In this document: positions 19,862-30,030 of the stretch, one piece after another
Position numbering within the stretch: position 1 is the first letter of the stretch
Layout of the letters: every line of letters begins with the position of its first letter
Assembly (NCBI GenBank): GCA_963675295.2
Contig: CAXXKJ010000002.1
Location: 3,680,001-3,744,000 of the forward strand
Source of the DNA: a bacterium
Lineage (GTDB): Bacteria; Electryoneota; Electryoneia; Electryoneales; Electryoneaceae
DNA length: 64,000 nucleotides
Direction: 5' to 3'
Translations under genes and position numbers: made by a program
Notes under the pieces: model-generated
Database searches by the model: none
Seen by the model: only the letters and a program-made list of their open reading frames with translations
Told to the model about the DNA's origin: nothing

Positions 19862-20102
19862 ACGCACGCTCACTGCCACCGTGGTCGCTACGACCCCGCT
19901 GACAGACCGCCTCCCGTATCGCTTGCCCGGTCAACCGGATCGGCCTATCTTCATCGTCGCCTCGCGACGGGCGGGAGAAGTGTCTTCCGGCGGCGGGGTG
20001 ACGTGTTTTGCTGGTGACCGCATGGTGTGAGCGGGTCGATGTGGACGGACTGGCCCGGAATCATGTCGTACACCAATGTACAGTCTGGATGCACAGTCAA
20101 TT

Positions 20103-20176
20103 CGGAGCGTGGCGCAGCCCGGTAGCGCACCTGACTGGGGGTCAGGGGGTCGCTGGTTCAAATCCAGTCGCTCCGA
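20103..20176 (+). tRNA. tRNA-Pro(GGG), CCA not encoded
   Basis: Acceptor CGGAGCG/CGCTCCG; anticodon arm CCTGA-CT GGG GG-TCAGG; T arm GCTGG-TTCAAAT-CCAGT. Confidence 0.96.
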
Positions 20177-20217
20177 CATTGGATAGTAAGGGGTTAGCAG
20201 AAATGCTGATCCCTTTT
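20133..20217 (+). repeat. Left att site: 85-bp direct repeat (tRNA 3' half + terminator)
   Basis: Matches 29946-30030 with 2 mismatches. Confidence 0.93.
20188..20217 (+). terminator. tRNA terminator hairpin (duplicated at 30001-30030)
   Basis: AAGGGGTTAGCA-GAAA-TGCTGATCCCTT followed by Ts. Confidence 0.7.
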
Positions 20218-20223
20218 CTCTGT

Positions 20224-20343
20224 CCATGGGGCACTGGTGGGGCAGAAACCGCCAAAATCCTCAGCTGGTAGCAGCCATTCACCCTCTGCCTTTTTTCCCA
20301 GATTCCTGCATATTTACACGCTGAGTGCCCCGTGAGTGCCCCA
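20224..20343. promoter_or_regulatory. Putative integrase arm-type binding sites (TGGGGCACTCA-like pairs at 20224-20245 and, inverted, at 20322-20343)
   Basis: Same 11-bp-period doublet recurs at 29809-29830 next to the other att site. Confidence 0.55.
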
Positions 20344-20519
20344 CATAAAAAGAGTCTGCCGGAAATCTCAAGATTTATAAGGTTTTCAGCAGGCTGTTCT
20401 TCTGAATACTAATCAGGTGTTGACTTCGTTCGGGGTGTTTGTTGCTTGAGGAGGTTGCTGGTGGGGGTCGTGTTAGACACGGCATGATTTCACCGGCAGC
20501 GAAGCCCGGGAGAGGCACC

Positions 20520-21047
20520 ATGGCGAATATCGAACGCAGGAAAGCGAAAGACGGTTCAACGTCCTACCGTGTGAAGATTCGTCATCAGGGGCACTCTAAC
20601 GAAACAAATACATTCGGCAAGCCGACAGAAGCCCGGGATTGGGCACAGGAAACCGAAGCCAGCATTCAGGCGGGACGGTATCTCCCCTCCATGGAAGCAC
20701 GGAAGCACACCCTTAGCGATCTGGTGGATCGGTACCTCAAGAACGTGATCCCGGAAAAGAAGAGCGGCAAGGATCAGGTGTACCAGCTTGAATGGTGGCG
20801 TGATCGAATCGGAACGTATCCGCTCGCCAGTGTAACGGCTGCTCTGATTTCCGAATGCCGGGACGAATTGAAGCAGAGCGGCAAGAGCAATGCAACGGTA
20901 AATCGGTTCCTTGCCGTGCTAAGCCATGCGTTCACCCTTGCCGAGCGTGAATGGGAGTGGATCGATCAGAACCCGTTCCGCAAAGTGTCCAAGCTGAAAG
21001 AGCCACGAGGGCGCGTACGTTTCCTCCTGCCGGGAATCACCGAATGA
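20520..21047 (+). pseudogene. Tyrosine integrase, N-terminal (arm-binding + core-binding) part only; catalytic domain absent
   Basis: MANIERRK...SYRVKIR...TF...EARDWA, TLSDLVDRYL, SNATVNRFLAVLSHAF, NPFRKV...RVRFL, then stop; no R-H-x-x-R/Y region seen downstream. Confidence 0.8.
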
Positions 21048-21611
21048 CGTTTGACTCATCCGACTTTGCGAGCGCTTTGTATTTCATCCGTGCAACGGTA
21101 TCCGGTCAAATGGACCAGGTGCAAAAAATGATGTTGGTGAGGTGACCGCCAAGGGTACCGACCAGAAAACTCAAGAGCTTAAAGTAGCATTCGGTTCATT
21201 TTGTCGAAATAAACCAACCTGTGCGGTTACGTGGATCGTAGAGGGTGTTTGACCTCAAAAGATAGACTCCGCTAACATTTAGATATTGTTAGCTTTGCCG
21301 AAAAGATGATCGTCACACTAGACTGATGCAAAACCAGTTCCTAAGATTAATTTGACAGAATTGCAGGTTTGGTCGCCTTCAATAATCAGAATCTGACTAG
21401 ACATATAACAATAGTTGTAATTTAGATAGATTCAATGTTGAATGATCGCAGTTAGTGAGAGACAGGATAGGGGGATGAGTATGTCAAGTCTTGCGAATTT
21501 TGATTTTTTGGATTATTTTTAGGCCGATGTCAAGAGATGCAAGTGGTGCTTACTTAGGGGGAAACACCACTTTCCGTGACGCCCCTCCGGGACAACCGAT
21601 GAATTGAGGTT

Positions 21612-22292
21612 GTGGTGGCGCTGCACAATGTAACCAGGTTCTTGGCAATCTGGATGATCGTATCGTTATCGTTTTTGTCCGTGGGTTTTGCATCTGAGAA
21701 ACCCGCGTCGCCAGCCTCTGTTCAACCCAAGGTTCGCCCTCAACAGCCAGTTTCTGAACGGATGAAACTCAATTCGTCCGAATGGTCGCAGCCCTCTCTG
21801 CAGCTCCACGCTCGCACCCTGCCGGACAGCCTCGATGTTCAACGCGGAAAGCAGGATCAGGGGAAGAGTATCAGCACTGGCGTCCCGACCTTCGATTTCG
21901 AGATTCAGACGGATCCGGTGATCTACTACGAGGTCCCCGGCGCACCCGGCGAATACCAGGGCCAGCAACCGATCCACCTTCAGATCACCAGCAACGCGAG
22001 CCAGTTTGAGCTTGACGATATCACCTGGCGTCTTCACTGCCGGATGGACTCGCTCCGTTCGTCTGACGACACATTCGACCTTGAACGCTTCCAGGTACGT
22101 GTCGCAGGCCAGGGGGAGTATGCACCGTTGAGCCAACCGCTGGTAGTGTTGCAGCAGACGGGAATGCAGAATCCACAGCAGGTGGATTTAGATGTGAAAT
22201 TCCTCGTCAGCCTGGGGGATCGTGCCGGAGATTACAACGGCGGGTTGACGTTTGAGCTTGAGTTGGTGGATGAAGTAGTGGAAGTTGAGTAG
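21612..22292 (+). CDS. Secreted pilin/Ig-like subunit 0 (putative minor subunit)
   Basis: Signal peptide; LQITSN motif and C-terminal AGDYNGGLTFEL strand shared with the downstream paralogs. Confidence 0.6.
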   Translation: MVALHNVTRFLAIWMIVSLSFLSVGFASEKPASPASVQPKVRPQQPVSERMKLNSSEWSQPSLQLHARTLPDSLDVQRGKQDQGKSISTGVPTFDFEIQTDPVIYYEVPGAPGEYQGQQPIHLQITSNASQFELDDITWRLHCRMDSLRSSDDTFDLERFQVRVAGQGEYAPLSQPLVVLQQTGMQNPQQVDLDVKFLVSLGDRAGDYNGGLTFELELVDEVVEVE

Positions 22293-22344
22293 GCAGGACA
22301 ATTGATCGCGGCGAAGTGTCCGCGAGCCGTAAAGACATGAATAT

Positions 22345-22429
22345 GGGCCGGTCTCCAGCCGCCAAAGCGAAGAACCGGCCCACACGGGCACCCCAGAAGA
22401 AGGGTATGGCACCGTTTCGTCTAAACTAA
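22345..22429 (+). repeat. Degenerate orphan copy of the cassette leader, followed by a 7-codon ORF
   Basis: GGGCCGGT...AGCCGCCA...ACCGGCCC stem-loop, CACACGG, CCCCAGAAGAAGG, then ATG...TAA. Confidence 0.55.
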
Positions 22430-22604
22430 CTGTAGCCGGGCGGTCAGGTCAAGCAGTTTCTATCAGCGCTGTTAGACAAGCGTGCTATGGCCGGAACATC
22501 GCCCACACCCGGAAGGCTGCAGTATGGCGATACGGTGCCCGGGCCCGTGATACTGATGAGGTTTGAGTTTTATAACGAAGCCGTTCATTGACAAGACACA
22601 CGCC

Positions 22605-22792
22605 GTTGCCCGAGCCGCCAGCTCATATGCCGGGCCACGTTGTGAAACAAAACAGAAATCGGTCAGGGAAGGCCGATGAATCGGTCACCGGTCAGATTTG
22701 ACCGGGGCAACCCCAGAAAAAGGAGAAGGATGATGAAGAAGCTCATGTTGATCGCCATTGCGATGCTCGTCGCGGTGGGCGCATTCGCGCAG
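22605..22792 (+). repeat. Cassette leader + signal-peptide repeat, copy 1
   Basis: TGCCCGAGCCGCCA...CCGGGC...AATCGGTC..GGCCGAT...CACCGGT...CCCAGAARAAGGAGAAGGATGATGAAGAA...GCGCAG. Confidence 0.9.
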
Positions 22793-23212
22793 AACGACCT
22801 TGGGAATCCCGAAGCGATCGCTGACGTAACTCTCGCGATTTCCCCATATGCTGAAGTTAGCTCTTTGTACCCAACGATTGGCTATCAGACGAATTTCCAT
22901 GGTGCCTCGTTGCCCTTGGATATTCCTGTGGTCGGTGGTGTAACCATCAGCACCAACGACGACGTTACAGCCACGGTTGCCTTTGAAGCACTGAACATGA
23001 ACCTGACAGTTTGGGACGCGCTTGTCTTTACCGGTTTGTTCGACGATGATTCCGCCAGCAAATCGTTCATTAACGGAGTGCACAATCCGGGCGTGAAGCT
23101 GCACATGGACTACACCCAGGCATACAACGACGGCTCGGTTACCTGGACCGATATCCCCGCTGAAAATCTTGGAACGGTTGGTTCGATTGTTGTTACGGTG
23201 ACGAGCAATTAA
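22730..23212 (+). CDS. Secreted pilin/Ig-like subunit 1
   Basis: MMKKLMLIAIAMLVAVGAFA-Q signal; ADVTLAISPYAEV; ISTN; C-terminal GSIVVTVTSN. Confidence 0.75.
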   Translation: MMKKLMLIAIAMLVAVGAFAQNDLGNPEAIADVTLAISPYAEVSSLYPTIGYQTNFHGASLPLDIPVVGGVTISTNDDVTATVAFEALNMNLTVWDALVFTGLFDDDSASKSFINGVHNPGVKLHMDYTQAYNDGSVTWTDIPAENLGTVGSIVVTVTSN

Positions 23213-23233
23213 AGACTTGTTGCGATAGACTGG

Positions 23234-23279
23234 CATGCTCTGCTGAACCTAGGCCCCGCAGAAACTTCAGCAGAGCATG
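23234..23279 (+). terminator. 14-bp hairpin between subunits 1 and 2
   Basis: CATGCTCTGCTGAA...TTCAGCAGAGCATG followed by TTTG. Confidence 0.6.
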
Positions 23280-23300
23280 TTTGAATTTGTGCAGTTGAAC

Positions 23301-23479
23301 GTTGCCCGAGCCGCCAGCTCAATAGCCGGGCAGAAGCTTGAAGTAACAATCGGTCGTTGCCGGCCGATCACACGGCCACCGGTAAAGAGGCCGGGAGACC
23401 CAGAAGAAGGAGAAGGATGATGAAGAAGCTTATACTGATCGCTCTCGCGATGCTCGTCGCGGTGGGCGCGTTTGCGCAA
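23301..23479 (+). repeat. Cassette leader + signal-peptide repeat, copy 2
   Basis: Same conserved blocks as copy 1; linker nearly identical to copy 3. Confidence 0.9.
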
Positions 23480-23854
23480 ATGACAGCAGACAAAGACGTT
23501 ACCCTTACGATCTTACCGTATGCACAGGTGACGGCACCTCCCGCAGCAATTGAACTGGAGTATGATCCGGCATGGGGATTCTCCGACTGGGCTTTGGGCG
23601 GAAACGCTTATAGTTGGAGCATTGACACAAACTTTGACATCGACGCCACGATGACGTATACGGACAATGGTGTCACTGGTGTCACGATTACCAATGCCGG
23701 CTTCTTCCTGAACCCGGGCGTACAGCAGGTGCTGTCCCTTACGGCGGGTCAACATCAGTACGGAACATTTGTTGATCTCGACATCGTCGATTGGACACCT
23801 GCGGCTGAGGATCTTGCCATCGGCACGCTCACTGTGACGCTTTCCGCTCAGTGA
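23417..23854 (+). CDS. Secreted pilin/Ig-like subunit 2
   Basis: MMKKLILIALAMLVAVGAFA-Q; KDVTLTILPYAQV; IDTN; GTLTVTLSAQ. Confidence 0.75.
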   Translation: MMKKLILIALAMLVAVGAFAQMTADKDVTLTILPYAQVTAPPAAIELEYDPAWGFSDWALGGNAYSWSIDTNFDIDATMTYTDNGVTGVTITNAGFFLNPGVQQVLSLTAGQHQYGTFVDLDIVDWTPAAEDLAIGTLTVTLSAQ

Positions 23855-23861
23855 AAAAATG

Positions 23862-23899
23862 CACTCAACCCGGCATCTAATAGGATGCCGGGTTGAGTG
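23862..23899. terminator. 16-bp perfect hairpin between subunits 2 and 3
   Basis: CACTCAACCCGGCATC-taatag-GATGCCGGGTTGAGTG. Confidence 0.6.
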
Positions 23900-23904
23900 A
23901 CTTA

Positions 23905-24081
23905 TGCCCGAGCCGCCAGCTCAATAGCCGGGCATAAGCTTGAAGTAACAATCGGTCGTTGCCGGCCGATCACACGAGCACCGGTCCAAGACCGGGGTAC
24001 CCCAGAAGAAGGAGCAGGATGATGAAGAAGCTTATGCTGATCGCTCTCGCGATGCTCGTCGCGGTGGGCGCGTTTGCGCAG
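23905..24081 (+). repeat. Cassette leader + signal-peptide repeat, copy 3
   Basis: Same conserved blocks. Confidence 0.9.
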
Positions 24082-24474
24082 CCGTACCAAGCCAATACCC
24101 TTCCGTTGGATGTTAACCTTACCATCAGTCCCTATGCAGAGCTTGCCTGGGTTACGGGCCAAGCTCCATTGGCGCTTGTATTGGAGCATCCTACCTGGTC
24201 GGACAACGAAACTGCGTATTTTAATTGCGCTTCCAACTTTGGCTTCATCATTGCGCAGACCTTGTCCGCGCCTTGGGGATCGGGATTTATGTCTGGAGCG
24301 TCGGTCGATCCTAACAATGATTTCGGGTTAAATGACGGTAACGGTGATGCCGGCAGTTACACCAACGTACCTGTAAGAGTAACTGCCATGATCTCCGGTT
24401 CGTATGAATGGTATGAAAAACAAGAGGGTAACTACGGAAACGGCACCCTTACGTTGACGATTATCCAGCAGTGA
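24019..24474 (+). CDS. Secreted pilin/Ig-like subunit 3
   Basis: MMKKLMLIALAMLVAVGAFA-Q; LDVNLTISPYAEL; CASN; GNYGNGTLTLTIIQQ. Confidence 0.75.
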   Translation: MMKKLMLIALAMLVAVGAFAQPYQANTLPLDVNLTISPYAELAWVTGQAPLALVLEHPTWSDNETAYFNCASNFGFIIAQTLSAPWGSGFMSGASVDPNNDFGLNDGNGDAGSYTNVPVRVTAMISGSYEWYEKQEGNYGNGTLTLTIIQQ

Positions 24475-24571
24475 GTTAGCCAGTCATTTTTTTCGTGGAA
24501 GATTGACAAGCCGTTCAGGTCCAGAAGTATTAATACGGAATAGCGACAGCGGCTGTAGAAGACAGGAAAAC

Positions 24572-24606
24572 ACATTCACGGAGCCTGAACCTGGCTCCGT
24601 GAATGT
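24572..24606. other. 14-bp perfect hairpin immediately 5' of leader copy 4
   Basis: ACATTCACGGAGCC-tgaacct-GGCTCCGTGAATGT. Confidence 0.65.
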
Positions 24607-24610
24607 CCAC

Positions 24611-24790
24611 TGCCCGAGCCGCCAAAAGGATACGCCGGGCAGCTAGGTCTAGAAGAAAATCGGTCAGGGAAGGCCGATCACACGGCCACCGGTCCAAAGA
24701 CCGTGGTACCCCAGAAGAAGGAGAAGGATGATGAAGAAACTTATGTTGATTGCTCTCGCGATGCTCGTCGCGGTGGGCGCGTTTGCGCAG
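24611..24790 (+). repeat. Cassette leader + signal-peptide repeat, copy 4
   Basis: Same conserved blocks. Confidence 0.9.
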
Positions 24791-25213
24791 CCGCCTGATT
24801 TCCAAGAAACGATTGACGTTTCGGTCACTATTGATTCGTATTGCTCTTTCTCCCTGGATGATGGTAGCCTGAGCATTGCGATGACTGGTGGCGATACGGA
24901 AGAGGAATCGGGTGTGATTCAGGGTTCATTCGCCAGCAACGACATGGCTATGCTTGTCTTTTCGTACGAGGGTTTAGGGACAGATTACATGACGAACGTA
25001 GCTGGGTATTCCTGGTTGCGGTATTTTGATGCAACAGTTGGGACTGTGTATGCTGGCTATAATGTCGGTCTCAATGAATTTATGAACTATCCGCTGATTA
25101 ACACGGAATCCAGAGACTTTACAGTCGGCATTAAAGTTTCAATGCCACAGTTTACGGATATTCCGGCTGGCACGTATTCAGAAGTTCTTGTAGTGTCAGT
25201 TTATTGCCTGTAA
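24728..25213 (+). CDS. Secreted pilin/Ig-like subunit 4
   Basis: MMKKLMLIALAMLVAVGAFA-Q; IDVSVTIDSYCSF; FASN; AGTYSEVLVVSVYCL. Confidence 0.75.
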   Translation: MMKKLMLIALAMLVAVGAFAQPPDFQETIDVSVTIDSYCSFSLDDGSLSIAMTGGDTEEESGVIQGSFASNDMAMLVFSYEGLGTDYMTNVAGYSWLRYFDATVGTVYAGYNVGLNEFMNYPLINTESRDFTVGIKVSMPQFTDIPAGTYSEVLVVSVYCL

Positions 25214-25289
25214 TGATGTGGCGCAGCAAGTATTGATCGCTACAGATTGAACCCTCCACAGAGCATTGGTCTTGCTTCGTGGAAGCATG

Positions 25290-25474
25290 GTTGCCCGAGC
25301 CGCCAGCTCACATGCCGGGCGATGGACTGAAACGAAACAGAAATCGGTCAGGGAAGGCCGATCACACGGCCACCGGTCCAAAGGCCGGGGTACCCCAGAA
25401 GAAGGAGAAGGATGATGAAGAAGCTTATGCTGATCGCTCTCGCGATGCTCGTCGCGGTGGGCGCGTTTGCGCAG
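25290..25474 (+). repeat. Cassette leader + signal-peptide repeat, copy 5
   Basis: Same conserved blocks; linker similar to copy 1. Confidence 0.9.
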
Positions 25475-25864
25475 TCGGATGCTAACGATGTCGCAGATCT
25501 GATTGTCACTATCGAACCGTACGCCTACGTTGAAGTGACTTCGGATGCTGTTGGTGTGACAATTACGCCACCAAATTGGGTGGCGACTTCTGAAGATCCC
25601 ATCGTTTTTAATTGCTGTGCAAACTACGGTTACTATCTCGAATACACAGCCAATAGCATGATAGCGAACCCATACTACATCTTTGTGTCACCTGTTGATC
25701 CAACTCTCGCAGCTTACGACGTAACTTCTGGTGAGCACATTGGCTTGGAGCTATATGCTCAGGTAGAGGTCTGGGATCAGGAGGGTTACCAGAATCCGTA
25801 TGATGTGCCGTTTGGTGAGTACACAGGCATGAACATAAACGTGCAGATCTATCCTGCGCCTTAA
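25412..25864 (+). CDS. Secreted pilin/Ig-like subunit 5
   Basis: MMKKLMLIALAMLVAVGAFA-Q; ADLIVTIEPYAYV; CCAN; GEYTGMNINVQIY. Confidence 0.75.
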   Translation: MMKKLMLIALAMLVAVGAFAQSDANDVADLIVTIEPYAYVEVTSDAVGVTITPPNWVATSEDPIVFNCCANYGYYLEYTANSMIANPYYIFVSPVDPTLAAYDVTSGEHIGLELYAQVEVWDQEGYQNPYDVPFGEYTGMNINVQIYPAP

Positions 25865-25891
25865 GGTTACATAACCATTGATAGGAAAGAC

Positions 25892-26392
25892 ATGAAGCCA
25901 ACACTGGCTGTATTTATCGTTTTACTGCTGTTGTTGACTACAGCGGGTTACAGCCAGACGGACACGGCAAGCATTCCCGTGAATCTGACCATCGAGCCGT
26001 ATACGGAAATCGATATCGCAAACGATATCATCATGACAACCGTGGAAGGCTGGTGGTTCAGTTCCGGGATGGAGATGGAAAGTGTTGGATCGACCAGTGT
26101 GCAGGTTGGAACCAACACCAACGCGACCCTTGTCTGTCCGGCGACCTTGGATATGCAGTTGATCGATCCTCCGGGACCGGAGATTATGACAGTGCGGACG
26201 GCTGTTTCCTACATGTACCCCGGGCACCCGCAGTATTATGCCCAGGGCGGGCAAGTCATCTGCATTGATCTCGAACCGGGCCTGCACACGGCGATCTCAC
26301 TTGAGGCATCGTTGTCGAAGGTGTGGAACGTCGGTGAGGATCTGGCTGGCACGTACCAGGGGACATTGACAGTGACTGTCACAGAGAACTAG
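25892..26392 (+). CDS. Secreted pilin/Ig-like subunit 6 (own signal peptide, no leader repeat)
   Basis: IPVNLTIEPYTEI; VGTN; AGTYQGTLTVTVTEN. Confidence 0.75.
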   Translation: MKPTLAVFIVLLLLLTTAGYSQTDTASIPVNLTIEPYTEIDIANDIIMTTVEGWWFSSGMEMESVGSTSVQVGTNTNATLVCPATLDMQLIDPPGPEIMTVRTAVSYMYPGHPQYYAQGGQVICIDLEPGLHTAISLEASLSKVWNVGEDLAGTYQGTLTVTVTEN

Positions 26393-26423
26393 TTTGTGGC
26401 CTCGCTGTTGAACTTTGTAACGG

Positions 26424-26454
26424 GTGAAAAGCCGGAGATCCTCCGGCTTTTCAC
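26424..26454. terminator. Hairpin/terminator separating subunit genes from assembly genes
   Basis: GTGAAAAGCCGGAG-atc-CTCCGGCTTTTCAC. Confidence 0.7.
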
Positions 26455-26480
26455 TCGATTGATCTCATTGTGAGGACGTC

Positions 26481-28100
26481 ATGCGTACCATTCTGATCAC
26501 ACTTTTGGTGATTTCTGCATTCATGGTCTGTGATTCCGTCCAGGCTCAGGGCTTCATGGTTAAACCGATGCGAATCGAGATGGCCGGGACTCCCGGGCAG
26601 CAGGTGCAGGTCGACCTCCAGATCAACAACACCAGTGCGGACAAGGCACCGGAAGTCCTGGTTGGGAAATGGTACCTCGATCAGGGAAATAACGGCAGCT
26701 ATCAGCCGTTGGCGACGGATGAAGTACCGTCTGAGCGCAAACAAATGATGCAGAGTTGTTTCGACTGGATGACGGTATCGGAAAACACTCTGATCGTACC
26801 ACCCCTGCAACAGGGACTAGTCACGGTTTCTGTGCGTATTCCCAGTGATGCAACGGGTACTTATTCTGCGCTACTGACGGTTGAAAATGTCCCGGAACGC
26901 CGCCCCGGAACCATTGGGATGGTGATGCGGTTCGTAGTCCCCGTAATTGTCGATGTGCGTGGCCGTTCCGCTCGCACGGAAATCGATCTTGCAGGCGTCT
27001 CGCTGAACTACGTGGAGTCAGAACAGAATGCGTCAGGAGAAAGTACACCCGCCGTGGACAACCTGCACGTTTCTGTCGCCAATGAAGGCAAGATTCGTGG
27101 TAAAGTCAGCGGTGATGTGACCATCTTGCGCAAGGCCGGCACGGGCTGGCGCCAGGTGACGGTTGTGGAATTCCCTGAGAAGACGGTCATGCCCGGAACG
27201 AGCTGGGATTTCGTGCAACCTTCCCCGCGCAGATTGGCAAGCGGCACCTACCGGCTGAGCACGAATTTCCTGCTGGATGGCCGGAAGATGCGTCCAATGA
27301 ATGAGATCGTTGAATACAAAGGTGATCCGTCGGTGACGACGGTGCAGGAAGATGTTTCGTTAATGATCGAGCCGCGTGTGGCTGAGATCGAGGGTGTACC
27401 GGGCGCGCGCCGCACGGCTCGCATTCGAATCCAGAATCCCAGCGAACAGCAGCTTTCTGTCAGTATCAGCAGCATGACGCCGAAAACATTGCAGGGCGTG
27501 GCAATGGGTGACGTAAAGGGCGAGGAGTATGCTTGTAACGAATGGCTGAATCCGAATCCGGCTGAGTTTACCCTTCGTGGTGGCGGCGAACGTACGGTGG
27601 CTGTCAGAGTCAGTTTTCCCGAAGAAAATTCGGACAAACCCTTCCATTATGGCAGTCTGGTGATTACGGCCACCTATGCAAACGGCGAAACCGCCAGTTC
27701 GGAAGAGGTGCTCGTGGTGGCGAAAAACCGTGAACTGGAAGCGGCACCGCACTTGTATCCGTACACGGTTTCAATCTCGCAGGTTGAGGGCAAGCAGTAC
27801 GCCGTGTCTGGTAAGTTTGGCAATGTCGGCAACGTGCACCTCTACCCTACCTGCCGGGCAACGTTATCCAATACGTCCGGCACACAGGTTTTCAAGCAGG
27901 CCGATCTGAATGCCGACATGGATCTTGTGTTGCCAATGGGTACACCGGTTTACAACGGCGTGCTTGACCTGGACGGTGTTAATGACGGCACGTACAAGCT
28001 GACGGTGGCTGCAACGTACGGTGAGCATGTGGCGAATAAGGATCTCGCGCTGCGTGTGACTACGAATGGCAACGGCAAGCAGGTTGAAGTGCTTGACTGA
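26481..28100 (+). CDS. Secreted protein with two tandem PapD/EcpB-like (DUF916-like) chaperone-type modules
   Basis: Signal peptide; module 1 FMVKPMRIEM...QINNTS...WMTV...LIVPPLQQGLVTVSVRIP; module 2 LMIEPRVAEI...RIQNPS...WLNPNPAEFTLRGGGERTVAVRV; each followed by an Ig domain with NEGK/NVGN. Confidence 0.6.
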   Translation: MRTILITLLVISAFMVCDSVQAQGFMVKPMRIEMAGTPGQQVQVDLQINNTSADKAPEVLVGKWYLDQGNNGSYQPLATDEVPSERKQMMQSCFDWMTVSENTLIVPPLQQGLVTVSVRIPSDATGTYSALLTVENVPERRPGTIGMVMRFVVPVIVDVRGRSARTEIDLAGVSLNYVESEQNASGESTPAVDNLHVSVANEGKIRGKVSGDVTILRKAGTGWRQVTVVEFPEKTVMPGTSWDFVQPSPRRLASGTYRLSTNFLLDGRKMRPMNEIVEYKGDPSVTTVQEDVSLMIEPRVAEIEGVPGARRTARIRIQNPSEQQLSVSISSMTPKTLQGVAMGDVKGEEYACNEWLNPNPAEFTLRGGGERTVAVRVSFPEENSDKPFHYGSLVITATYANGETASSEEVLVVAKNRELEAAPHLYPYTVSISQVEGKQYAVSGKFGNVGNVHLYPTCRATLSNTSGTQVFKQADLNADMDLVLPMGTPVYNGVLDLDGVNDGTYKLTVAATYGEHVANKDLALRVTTNGNGKQVEVLD

Positions 28101-28149
28101 CGTCTCCCGACAACCTCCTCACTATCGTTTTGAGCAAAGGGATGCTGTG

Positions 28150-29772
28150 ATGCGTGTTATCCGATATGCCTTGCTTTCTCTCGCGCTGATCGTACTTTTT
28201 TCAGGATGTACGGCGAACAAGCAGTTTGACGAACGGCTGGCTGTTCCGCAGCAGCAGGCGAACGAGATTGACTTCGCGTTGGAAACGGTGGCAAATGCGC
28301 ACCAGGCGCAGAACTACCAGCGCATGGTGGATGTGCTCAAGGATGTTGTCGCGAACGGGTATGTGTATCACCGTGCGGATGAAATCCTGTATTGGATCGG
28401 GGTGGCGCGGGTGAACATGCTGCATGCCGATCAGGCGATGCAGGCGTTTGCCACGCTCCGTGACTACTATCCGTGGATTGAGGGCAAGTACCCGGACCTC
28501 GTTGAATGGGAGGAGTTGGCCCAACGGATGATACGCGATCGACAGGAGGCTGCCAGCGATGCGGACGAGATTATCAATTCGCTGGACGATTCCGCCTGGT
28601 CGGACGACGGTACGCCGCTGGTGTCAAACTCGTTCTTCGATTCCGATCTTCGGATGGTGCTCGCAGATTTAACAGCAGACACAGGTGTCCGCATTATCGC
28701 CGACCCGCAGGTCAGCGGATTTGTGACGGCTGATTTTTACGATGTACCGCTGGAAGAGGTACTGGAGCAAATCCTGCTGCCGAATGGGTTCACTTACCGC
28801 AACATGGGCGACTACTATCTCGTTGGGGATGCATCAACAAGCAGCCCGTCTTTCGCTACGATGTCTGAAACACGTCGATTCCCGCTTCGCTACCTCCGCA
28901 CCAGCCAGCTCGAGGCATTGTTGCCCGACGTCTTCATTGATTATGTCCGTTTTGACCATACCTCGAATACGATTACGATCACCGCCTCGCCGATCATGGT
29001 TGATCGGTTGAGTATCATCCTTGACGAAATCGACGTCCTCCCCACCCAGTTCCTGATCGAGGTGGAAGTGCTCGAGATGAGCAAGGAGCTTGAACGTTCG
29101 CTGGGGCTGAACTGGGATTTTATCGGAACAAAGAGCGATCAGAGCTTTGTCTTTTCGCAGCTGGCGCCGGATTCTCTGGTGGCGTCTCTGCTCGGTGAGG
29201 TCATCGCAACAGGCGAATCAGGACCGGAAGGGTTTACTGTTGACCGTCGCACCGCCATTAACGCGTTGGCGGACAATGGGCTGGTGAAGGTACTGGCCAA
29301 TCCCCGCCTGAGCACGCAACAGGGACAGGCCGCGACAATCCGTGTCGGAAAGGAAGCCTACTTCAACCTGCTGGGTAATTCTGGGACCTATATCACGTCG
29401 AATGCGCTGGAGAAGATCTCCACCGGTGTCACGCTCAGCATTGTCCCGTTCCGCGGAGAAAATGCGCAGATCACCACCGATCTGGATGTGGAAGTCAGTG
29501 ATGTCCTTGATCCTGGAACTGGTGGATTGCCTGTAACCAGCGTACGCCAGGTAACCACACGGTCTACGGTTGCTAATGGCAATACGCTTGGTGTTGGTGG
29601 ATTGTTGCTTGAGAACGACCGGAAGAGCCGAAGCGGAATTCCAGGACTGAGTGAAATTCCTGTTCTTGGGTATCTCTTCGGTCAAACGACGACAGAATCT
29701 GTCACCACCGAGGTGGTTATCCTGATTACACCACATGTTCTCTTGCCGCCAGATTTGTTTCGAGATCTCTGA
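28150..29772 (+). CDS. Secretin (GspD/PilQ family) with N-terminal lipoprotein signal and TPR segment
   Basis: LFSG-C lipobox; TPR (ADEILYWIG...FATLRDYYP); N0-like DSDLRMVLADL...IIADPQVSG; KVLANPRLST, TGVTLSIVP, GIPGLSEIPVLGYLF, EVVILITPHV. Confidence 0.88.
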   Translation: MRVIRYALLSLALIVLFSGCTANKQFDERLAVPQQQANEIDFALETVANAHQAQNYQRMVDVLKDVVANGYVYHRADEILYWIGVARVNMLHADQAMQAFATLRDYYPWIEGKYPDLVEWEELAQRMIRDRQEAASDADEIINSLDDSAWSDDGTPLVSNSFFDSDLRMVLADLTADTGVRIIADPQVSGFVTADFYDVPLEEVLEQILLPNGFTYRNMGDYYLVGDASTSSPSFATMSETRRFPLRYLRTSQLEALLPDVFIDYVRFDHTSNTITITASPIMVDRLSIILDEIDVLPTQFLIEVEVLEMSKELERSLGLNWDFIGTKSDQSFVFSQLAPDSLVASLLGEVIATGESGPEGFTVDRRTAINALADNGLVKVLANPRLSTQQGQAATIRVGKEAYFNLLGNSGTYITSNALEKISTGVTLSIVPFRGENAQITTDLDVEVSDVLDPGTGGLPVTSVRQVTTRSTVANGNTLGVGGLLLENDRKSRSGIPGLSEIPVLGYLFGQTTTESVTTEVVILITPHVLLPPDLFRDL

Positions 29773-29808
29773 TACACACTCGATCTAACAACGCAGCTGC
29801 TACTAATT

Positions 29809-29830
29809 CCATGGGGCACTCATGGGGCAG
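29809..29830. promoter_or_regulatory. Putative integrase arm-type site doublet near right att
   Basis: CCATGGGGCACTCATGGGGCAG, compare CCATGGGGCACTGGTGGGGCAG at 20224. Confidence 0.55.
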
Positions 29831-29945
29831 TGTCCCCAAGAAATCCCCGTAAATCACAATAACATGAGGCAGGAGATAACCGGCTATCTAGCAATTATTC
29901 CTATCGTTAACGCTTGTAGAGTGTTGTGATTGTTGCGCTGGATAG

Positions 29946-30030
29946 GACTGGGGGTCAGGGGGTCGCTGGTTCAAATCCAGTCGCTCCGACACTGGAAAGT
30001 AAGGGGTTAGCAGAAATGCTGATCCCTTTT
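29946..30030 (+). repeat. Right att site: displaced 3' half of tRNA-Pro + terminator
   Basis: 85-bp copy of 20133-20217; tRNA 5' half absent. Confidence 0.93.

Follow-up and report, generated by a model that had tools for sequence, protein, structure and literature searches.

A repeated leader before five subunit genes

We analyzed a 64,000-nucleotide (nt) window of an Electryoneota genome (GCA_963675295.2, contig CAXXKJ010000002.1, positions 3,680,001 to 3,744,000, forward strand), in which five paralogous genes for secreted subunits are each preceded by a copy of the same leader, 114–123 nt long. Coordinates are those of the window, and the leaders, genes, intergenic hairpins and candidate promoter described below all lie on the plus (+) strand. 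A first-pass annotation had described a repeated leader with three hairpins and invariant unpaired blocks at 22605–22732, the first of five tandem copies, and all of the features that it listed are present there and in the four other copies. The conserved block opens with TGCCCG in every copy (starts at 22607, 23303, 23905, 24611 and 25292) and runs to an ATGATG start (22730, 23417, 24019, 24728 and 25412), which places copies c1–c5 at 22607–22729, 23303–23416, 23905–24018, 24611–24727 and 25292–25411. R1, a covariance model trained on c1–c5, scored 135, 127, 141, 132 and 152 bits on them, thus 127–152 bits at exactly five leader sites in the 4.8-Mb genome, with the next match at 18 bits; the high scores arise by construction, because the model was built from these same five copies.

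From 5' to 3', stem 1 (GCCCG.GC/GC.CGGGC) encloses AGCCGCCA, which is invariant in the alignment of all five copies, and c4 has AGCCGCCAAAAGGATAC as its stem 1 loop. An A-rich, variable linker leads to stem 2 (ATCGGTC/GGCCGAT), the loop of which reads AGGGAA in c1, c4 and c5 and GTTGCC in c2 and c3. The block CACACG follows in four of the five copies (c1 has GAATCG instead), and next comes stem 3 (CCGGT.../...CCGG), whose loops are variable. The leader closes with CCCAGAARAAGGAG.AGGATGATG, the AGG part standing directly before the start codon, and each of the five copies has a 16-nt polypurine tract with AAGGAG 5–10 nt upstream of the AUG. For c1, these parts map to 22607–22636 (stem 1, with AGCCGCCA at 22613–22620), 22658–22677 (stem 2), 22688–22705 (stem 3) and 22715–22729 (polypurine Shine–Dalgarno region).

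The conserved block does not stop at the start codon. It extends through the 63 nt (21 codons) that encode the signal peptide, MMKKLMLIALAMLVAVGAFAQ, giving a shared block of ~190 bp per cassette (leader and signal-peptide codons). These codons occupy 22730–22792 in gene 1 (22730–23212; signal peptide MMKKLMLIAIAMLVAVGAFAQ), 23417–23479 in gene 2 (23417–23854), 24019–24081 in gene 3 (24019–24474), 24728–24790 in gene 4 (24728–25213) and 25412–25474 in gene 5 (25412–25864). The five leader-bearing genes encode exported proteins of 145–161 amino acids (aa). A sixth subunit paralogue (25892–26392) follows gene 5 after a gap of 27 nt, with its own signal peptide and without a leader.

A reduced sixth leader copy, c0 (22338–22408), lies 3' of the first gene of the locus (R1 13.2 bits, E = 0.11 and 0.02; folding z = -2.2). 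It retains AGCCGCCAAA, CACACGG and ACCCCAGAAGAAGG in that order, without stems 2 and 3, and forms a hairpin of GGGCCGGT/ACCGGCCC around AGCCGCCAAA, with an 8-bp stem that is unlike stem 1 and a loop in which AGCCGCCA is kept. After the ribosome-binding-like end of c0 stands a seven-codon open reading frame (ORF), MAPFRLN (22402–22425). A relic gene in the 190 nt between this ORF and c1 was considered and rejected, as the stretch has no similarity to the array.

The locus as a whole opens with the gene of an exported 226-aa protein and continues with those of the six subunits, after which come a 539-aa exported immunoglobulin (Ig)-like protein and a secretin. The first gene (21612–22292) has no family match, and a counterpart stands 5' of the subunit genes in G009, a genome of the same family. 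The 539-aa protein (26481–28100) carries Ig-like domains and the N-terminal motif FMVKPM and serves below as the marker of a gene-cluster family; the outer-membrane secretin (28066–29772) has TPR and STN domains (Pfam Secretin, E = 5e-37). Hairpins stand 3' of the first three subunit genes: a 14-bp one followed by TTTGAATTTG (23234–23279; terminator-like or 3'-protective) ends 23 nt before c2, a 16-bp one (23862–23899), without a T-run on the plus strand and flagged for the minus strand only, ends 5 nt before c3, and a second 14-bp one (24572–24606) ends 4 nt before c4. Leader conservation sets in about 5–23 nt past the hairpin of the upstream gene. The only sigma-70-like plus-strand match upstream is a candidate operon promoter, TTGACC-18-TAACAT (21249–21278), in AT-rich sequence before the first gene; as the consensus scan found three sites against 4.8 expected, this is weak evidence. 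The same scan gave no sigma-70-like match between any gene and the next leader.

An AlphaFold2 model of the subunit is an Ig-like sandwich (mean predicted local distance difference test (pLDDT) 79.4). The top Foldseek matches were CsuA/B, CupE, the FimH pilin domain, Caf1 and PapA, with E of at least 0.047 and template-modelling (TM) scores of 0.3–0.38, and VIA-align returned Z ≤ 5.7 with many Ig-like folds tied. The nearest named clusters in a protein atlas were SCPU (0.91) and DUF4402 (0.89); no literature was found linking DUF4402 with secretin. From these predicted folds, "pilin-like" is a reasonable label for the subunits, not an established one.

The locus is the cargo of a horizontally acquired 9.8-kb island integrated at tRNA-Pro (20103–20177), with an 85-nt direct repeat of the 3' part of the tRNA gene and its flank at about 29946–30030. 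The integrase ORF of the island (20439–21047, 202 aa) stops after ...GRVRFL, just past the first catalytic arginine and before the catalytic domain. A paralogous island 530 kb away (C2:3167112–3174664) holds different cargo and an intact integrase of 383 aa (C2:3167322–3168473; 90.6% nt identity over 823 nt). A short ORF at 20951–21145, ending ...ALYFIRATVSGQMDQVQKMMLVR, is similar to the C-terminal end of a 694-aa protein that the paralogous island encodes, and it appears to be what is left of a cargo gene that was deleted. No joint between cassettes was present in contigs from four public DNA runs; such contigs break at every repeat and drop rare variants. The only contig joint seen (21026 to 29812) is accounted for by the paralogous island, and one X4 contig departs upstream of 22304 and is uninformative on cassette order.

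Concerted evolution and confinement to one genome

Across the five genes, the signal-peptide codons (63 nt) are 86–100% identical at the nucleotide level (mean 93%), silent sites included, whereas the next 90 nt past the cleavage site are 57% identical, against 55% in a shuffled control. The mature subunit parts share only 23–38% identity. Within the leader, relationships change from one segment to the next: c1 and c5 have an identity of 0.91 in stem 1 and 0.71 across stems 2–3, while c4 and c5 have 0.96 across stems 2–3 and 0.66 in stem 1. The closest pairs are accordingly c1/c5 for stem 1 and the linker, c4/c5 for stems 2–3, and c2/c3 throughout. Because ancient paralogues combine near-identical silent sites with mosaic relationships, the comparison indicates gene conversion between the tandem copies, which appears to be ongoing. 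The tract of identity ends sharply at the cleavage site, and this therefore suggests that selection favors diversity in the mature part.

The leader was not matched to any known RNA family. A covariance-model scan of window positions 20000–30000 against Rfam 15 (4227 models, E ≤ 10) returned the tRNA as its only real match, in agreement with the first-pass annotation, which had not recognized a known riboswitch. A Twister-P5 hit over c5 was rejected (17.8 bits, where the gathering score is 37.6; E = 5.5). Signs of a riboswitch were likewise not seen in the five near-identical copies, for which neither a multi-helix junction nor a stem sequestering the Shine–Dalgarno sequence is predicted. Rfam scans of related loci also gave no known family (20 loci at the gathering score, 13 at E ≤ 1).

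Searches for the leader itself led back to the same five sites. One block used as a blastn query found only the five copies in its own genome and only noise in 60 relatives. R1 gave no real match outside its own genome across 79 genomes of the phylum (own included); a match in G006 was rejected as lying inside a ClpB coding region (KKEKDD) and one in G056 as AT-rich. One same-family genome (G009) has a syntenic locus, and the leader there is unrelated. Beyond the phylum, no homologue of the R1 leader was found in the 48 loci that encode the 539-aa marker, and a search for the exact motif words on the plus strand 5' of the subunit genes of these loci and L022 found none. The first leader of locus L082 bore some likeness to stem 3 (11.4 bits), which was rejected because its closest relative, L075, is without that hairpin. 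With no leader homologues, covariation could therefore be tested on the five copies only.

Potential trans-acting partners were sought as well. Neither CsrA (PF02599, for which control genomes gave matches) nor Hfq was found by model search in the 92.8%-complete genome, and no regulator or candidate binding partner is encoded in the island. The leader also departs from CsrA-type leaders, as the GGA-containing stem 2 loop AGGGAA occurs in three of five copies only. We conclude that the leader is a genuine feature, is not catalogued and is restricted to this genome, and that it is best described as a new form of structured leader or of intercistronic element that is tied to a signal peptide common to the five genes.

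A gene-cluster family with a sister leader motif

The locus belongs to a rare, unannotated gene-cluster family whose members encode an exported protein, between one and eight pilin-like subunits that carry Sec signal peptides, and an Ig-like protein of ~540–590 aa with the FMVKPM motif; in the window (21612–29772) the cluster also includes the secretin. Related loci were gathered with an alignment of the 539-aa protein. The search matched only 9 proteins among 5.8 billion clusters and yielded 48 loci (L039–L086), besides L022; genomes labelled Verrucomicrobiota, Armatimonadia, Alphaproteobacteria, Desulfuromonadales and Planctomycetota are among them. The closest relative of the 539-aa protein, P0002, has 39% identity to it and is encoded on a 13-kb contig. 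With an iterated hidden Markov model, 114 subunit ORFs were detected across the 48 loci plus L022, a number that includes the six of the window. The cluster may represent a fibre-assembly pathway with a secretin in the place of the usher.

Tandem paralogues with a common 5' block also occur in L070, L074, L079 and L082. Two further loci, L040 (2661–6663, Armatimonadia-labelled) and L065 (2919–6444, a metagenome contig), each hold eight tandem subunit paralogues that are ~80% identical over the whole gene. Signal peptides and N-terminal strands do not differ among these paralogues, which makes the two loci a more pronounced instance of concerted evolution within the family.

Many major-subunit genes of the family lie behind intergenic regions of 270–500 nt, and there we found a second, sister leader motif. 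It precedes major-subunit genes in 19 instances, from metagenome contigs and from genomes of Planctomycetota (L046, L047) and Verrucomicrobiota, at L055:228–323, L071:1224–1319, L086:491–587, L047:5987–6079, L077:130–215, L070:1663–1769 and 13 more sites. The motif consists of hairpin A (GGGCAC-GYGY-GUGCCC), a linker, a long and variable hairpin B and a purine-rich ribosome-binding region, and in some loci it is embedded in a conserved region of ~300–330 nt. Covariation among 11 sequences is supported, with a score of 0.274 against 0.154 (none of 500 shuffles as high) and 15 double-change cells against 5.4, figures that are inflated by the kinship of the sequences. A covariance model of these 11 leaders (R2) recovered all 12 group-A instances, namely the 11 training rows and L057, which is identical to L085 over the match, and found seven further instances outside the training set (E 2e-6 to 2.8e-4). 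The motif had no Rfam match at E ≤ 1.

Like the leader in the window, the sister motif stands directly 5' of a major-subunit gene and has several hairpins followed by a purine-rich ribosome-binding region; in both, the last hairpin ends about 21–23 nt before the AUG, as judged by eye and without a control. It differs in being longer (up to ~330 nt) and in having no detectable sequence or profile similarity, and the window leader is not a member of R2 (no match at E ≤ 5; no match of full-leader nhmmer profiles at E ≤ 10). Where the genes behind the sister motif stand in tandem, the motif is repeated completely once (L070) and just partly in L074. The cluster family and its covariation-supported leader motif are the more novel results around the window leader.

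Predicted structure and possible roles of the leader

We tentatively favor a reading of the leaders as an intercistronic mRNA module of protective hairpins and a polypurine Shine–Dalgarno region, copied along with the genes and since homogenized by conversion; on the sequence evidence, this may well be correct. The repeat would then be the front end of a duplicated cassette, in which a very strong polypurine site (AGAAGAAGGAGAAGGA-AUG) links the intercistronic 5' leader to the codons of the signal peptide, and it would stand before five highly diverged subunit paralogues in what would be a secretin-linked fimbrial operon resembling those of chaperone-usher pilins. Two processes would uphold the likeness of the block, conversion on the one hand and selection on the hairpins, unpaired blocks and export signal on the other, while the mature protein parts would be left free to diverge. 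Acting in cis on the mRNA, the leader hairpins, the hairpins after the genes and the ribosome-bound polypurine site could shield and mark off each subunit segment of a long transcript and boost its translation, and the outcome would be subunits in excess over the downstream assembly proteins. That the leader is transcribed within the mRNA, that its hairpins form and that they affect stability, processing or translation is what we infer from the arrangement of the sequence. We read the leaders as parts of one long mRNA because the only promoter-like site lies before the first gene and because conservation starts after a strong post-gene hairpin, and a self-contained cis element fits because no CsrA, Hfq or island-encoded regulator was found. 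Structured leaders also recur in the cluster family, where 11 sister loci have two covariation-supported hairpins just 5' of the ribosome-binding site.

Intercistronic stem-loops in the pap, puf and mal operons give the segments of a polycistronic mRNA different stabilities. The window shares with these operons hairpins between fibre or structural cistrons and a major-subunit segment 5' of less-needed assembly genes, and differs from them in having a full three-hairpin leader with invariant blocks, present five times and joined to identical signal-peptide codons. A second comparison is offered by 5' stabilizers: passages of PMC7509114 describe two protective elements in the ompA 5' untranslated region (UTR) and a polypurine 5' stabilizer in Bacillus subtilis, citing Arnold, Yu and Belasco 1998, Emory et al. 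1992 and Hue et al. 1995. As in ompA-type stabilizers, a leader of ~120 nt with stem-loops and single-stranded spacers precedes the gene of an abundant exported structural protein; as in both types, there is a very strong ribosome-binding site of a kind that can itself protect mRNA, here a sequence feature only. Unlike ompA-type stabilizers, the window leader is repeated inside an operon rather than located at a mapped transcript 5' end, and there is no sequence relationship. The array would be a natural example of modular design, in which one expression-and-export cassette is kept uniform before subunit genes that have diverged almost beyond recognition. If the leaders control subunit supply, they offer an entry to the building and regulation of a possibly new surface fibre, and such strong, compact and self-contained leaders could be useful parts for secreted-protein expression.

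The structural side of this module rests on where the copies vary. The RNAalifold consensus consists of the same three hairpins as had been proposed in the first-pass annotation; they are predicted to fold separately, without a helix that encloses them, a multi-helix junction or a stem that sequesters the Shine–Dalgarno sequence. Variation is depleted in the stems: 14 paired columns are variable and 36 invariant, against 43 and 31 unpaired columns (Fisher p = 0.001), and with the ribosome-binding part excluded the unpaired columns number 39 variable and 15 invariant (p = 1e-5), p-values that are generous since alignment columns are not independent. In stem 2, the 6-nt loop is fully exchanged (AGGGAA versus GTTGCC) while the arms never vary, and a U-G pair inside it is present in all five copies, corresponding to an A-C mismatch on the opposite strand. 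The outermost pairs of stem 1 are UA, UG, AU and CG across the copies. The pattern of kept stems and varying loops, from which selection on structure had been proposed in that annotation, is thus borne out as far as variation is concerned, but not by covariation or folding energy.

Several results weigh against the protective-hairpin module. Within the set of five copies, covariation does not reach significance (score 0.112 versus 0.070 shuffled, 47 of 500 shuffles as high), and two pairs show double changes (164 of 500 shuffles as high). The covariance model and the Rfam and homologue searches that had been proposed as a check yielded no Rfam family and no homologues, which largely amounts to the lack of covariation support among homologues that the first-pass annotation had named as refuting its motif. 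Folding z-scores of c1–c5 are ordinary (-2.58, -0.31, -0.89, -1.48 and -0.81), the minimum-free-energy folds of c1, c2 and c5 deviate from the consensus, and folding has no strand asymmetry, the antisense strand reaching a stability similar to that of the sense. For the ribosome-binding site, the predicted accessibility (0.53–0.69) does not exceed the value obtained after shuffling of the upstream part in four of the five copies; an insulator role, in which the hairpins hold this site open, was rejected, as only one of the five copies beats shuffled upstream sequence. The conserved stems could be a by-product of recent gene conversion, and the invariant unpaired AGCCGCCA and CACACGG, which a pure stabilizer leaves unexplained, hint at a sequence-specific partner. 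Selection on the structure of the leader RNA is therefore plausible but unproven.

This last hint leads to an alternative that we consider unlikely, namely that the leader is a specific riboregulator in which AGCCGCCA, CACACGG and GGUACCCC, together with the hairpins, dock a protein, small RNA or ligand in trans and so tune all subunits. Flagellin leaders, for comparison, couple subunit synthesis to assembly or secretion. The unpaired blocks are invariant in five or four of the five copies, and all three survive in c0 despite the loss of two hairpins; moreover, in every copy the 3' arm of stem 2 could pair instead with a sequence further downstream (GGCCG/CGGCC in c2–c5, GGCCGA/UCGGUC in c1), a choice that allows two structural states, and the sister loci with a covariation-supported leader suggest that leader RNAs matter in this system. 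Yet the island encodes no candidate partner and the genome search found neither CsrA nor Hfq, the GGA-containing loop is absent from two of five copies, and the leader has no Shine–Dalgarno-sequestering stem, junction, pseudoknot, covariation support or Rfam match. In its fullest form, a regulatory RNA dedicated to an undescribed secretin-dependent fimbrial system, with invariant loops docking a partner that sets the output of all five subunits and a counterpart in the sister motif, the proposal is similarly improbable; if true, the whole fimbrial system would share a new RNA-based layer of control over pilus production. The repeat could instead matter as DNA, with ~190 bp of homology allowing cassettes to be deleted, duplicated and reordered behind a single promoter, so that the fibre varies and the hairpins are incidental, which we also regard as rather unlikely. 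Its closest parallel is the vpma/vsp families of Mycoplasma, for which the sections of PMC2268961 on these loci describe conserved 5' UTRs and signal-peptide regions, recombination sites at -1 to -72, one promoter, and a tyrosine recombinase and tRNA gene nearby, with terminator structures drawn in the locus map. The window resembles vpma/vsp (M. agalactiae, M. bovis) as a multigene family with a conserved 5' UTR and signal region, variable mature parts and adjoining recombinase and tRNA genes, tRNA-Pro and integrase genes flanking the locus; the mosaic identities mean that the copies do recombine, and the family has at least four more loci (the four named above) in which tandem paralogues share a 5' block. 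Unlike in vpma/vsp, the subunits are pilin-like Sec proteins in a secretin operon rather than lipoproteins, the recombinase is truncated (at residue 202, with the intact 383-aa paralogue elsewhere), and all six paralogues are on the plus strand, which therefore makes inversion switching impossible. Every copy, furthermore, has a full ribosome-binding site and start codon, homology alone leaves the stem-avoiding variation unexplained, and the lack of a cassette joint in the contigs of four DNA runs is a weak point on the same side, rare variants being lost there.

The idea in the first-pass annotation of a folded single-stranded DNA recombination site before each subunit finds no support here: no copy has a GTTRRRY core, the integrase is truncated and the genes are co-oriented. 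An integron attC site was rejected likewise: the blocks start with GTTGCCC, ACTGCCC or TATGCCC, they lie 5' of genes with their own ribosome-binding sites, and the only recombinase gene is the truncated island integrase adjoining the tRNA gene. Least probable among the readings that we weighed is an internal promoter and/or inverted-repeat operator in each leader, which would make every subunit gene its own transcription unit with the downstream hairpin as its end. Strong hairpins do follow genes 1–3, one of them with a T-rich tail, and if these are terminators each gene needs a promoter; as inverted repeats, the three stems could also be targets of a dimeric DNA-binding protein, and sense and antisense fold equally well, as expected for DNA palindromes. 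Against this stand the absence of a sigma-70-like hexamer pair in or just before any leader (in a scan that is not decisive, as promoters of this phylum may be of another type), a sigma-54 GG-N10-GC spacing that, by eye, fits only one of five copies, the onset of conservation about 5–23 nt past the upstream hairpin, too close for a conserved promoter to fit in between, and the stem 2 U-G pair, which is a mismatch on the other strand in all five copies.

One further observation concerns the stretch formed by CACACGG and the 5' arm of stem 3 (25357–25378 in c5; also in c2 and c4). It is reverse-complementary to the GroEL coding region of the same genome (C2:2500761–2500782, codons LTGGRVIS) over 21 of 22 nt, 19 of them contiguous (blastn E = 0.009), a match that may reflect chance, origin from a gene fragment or antisense pairing.

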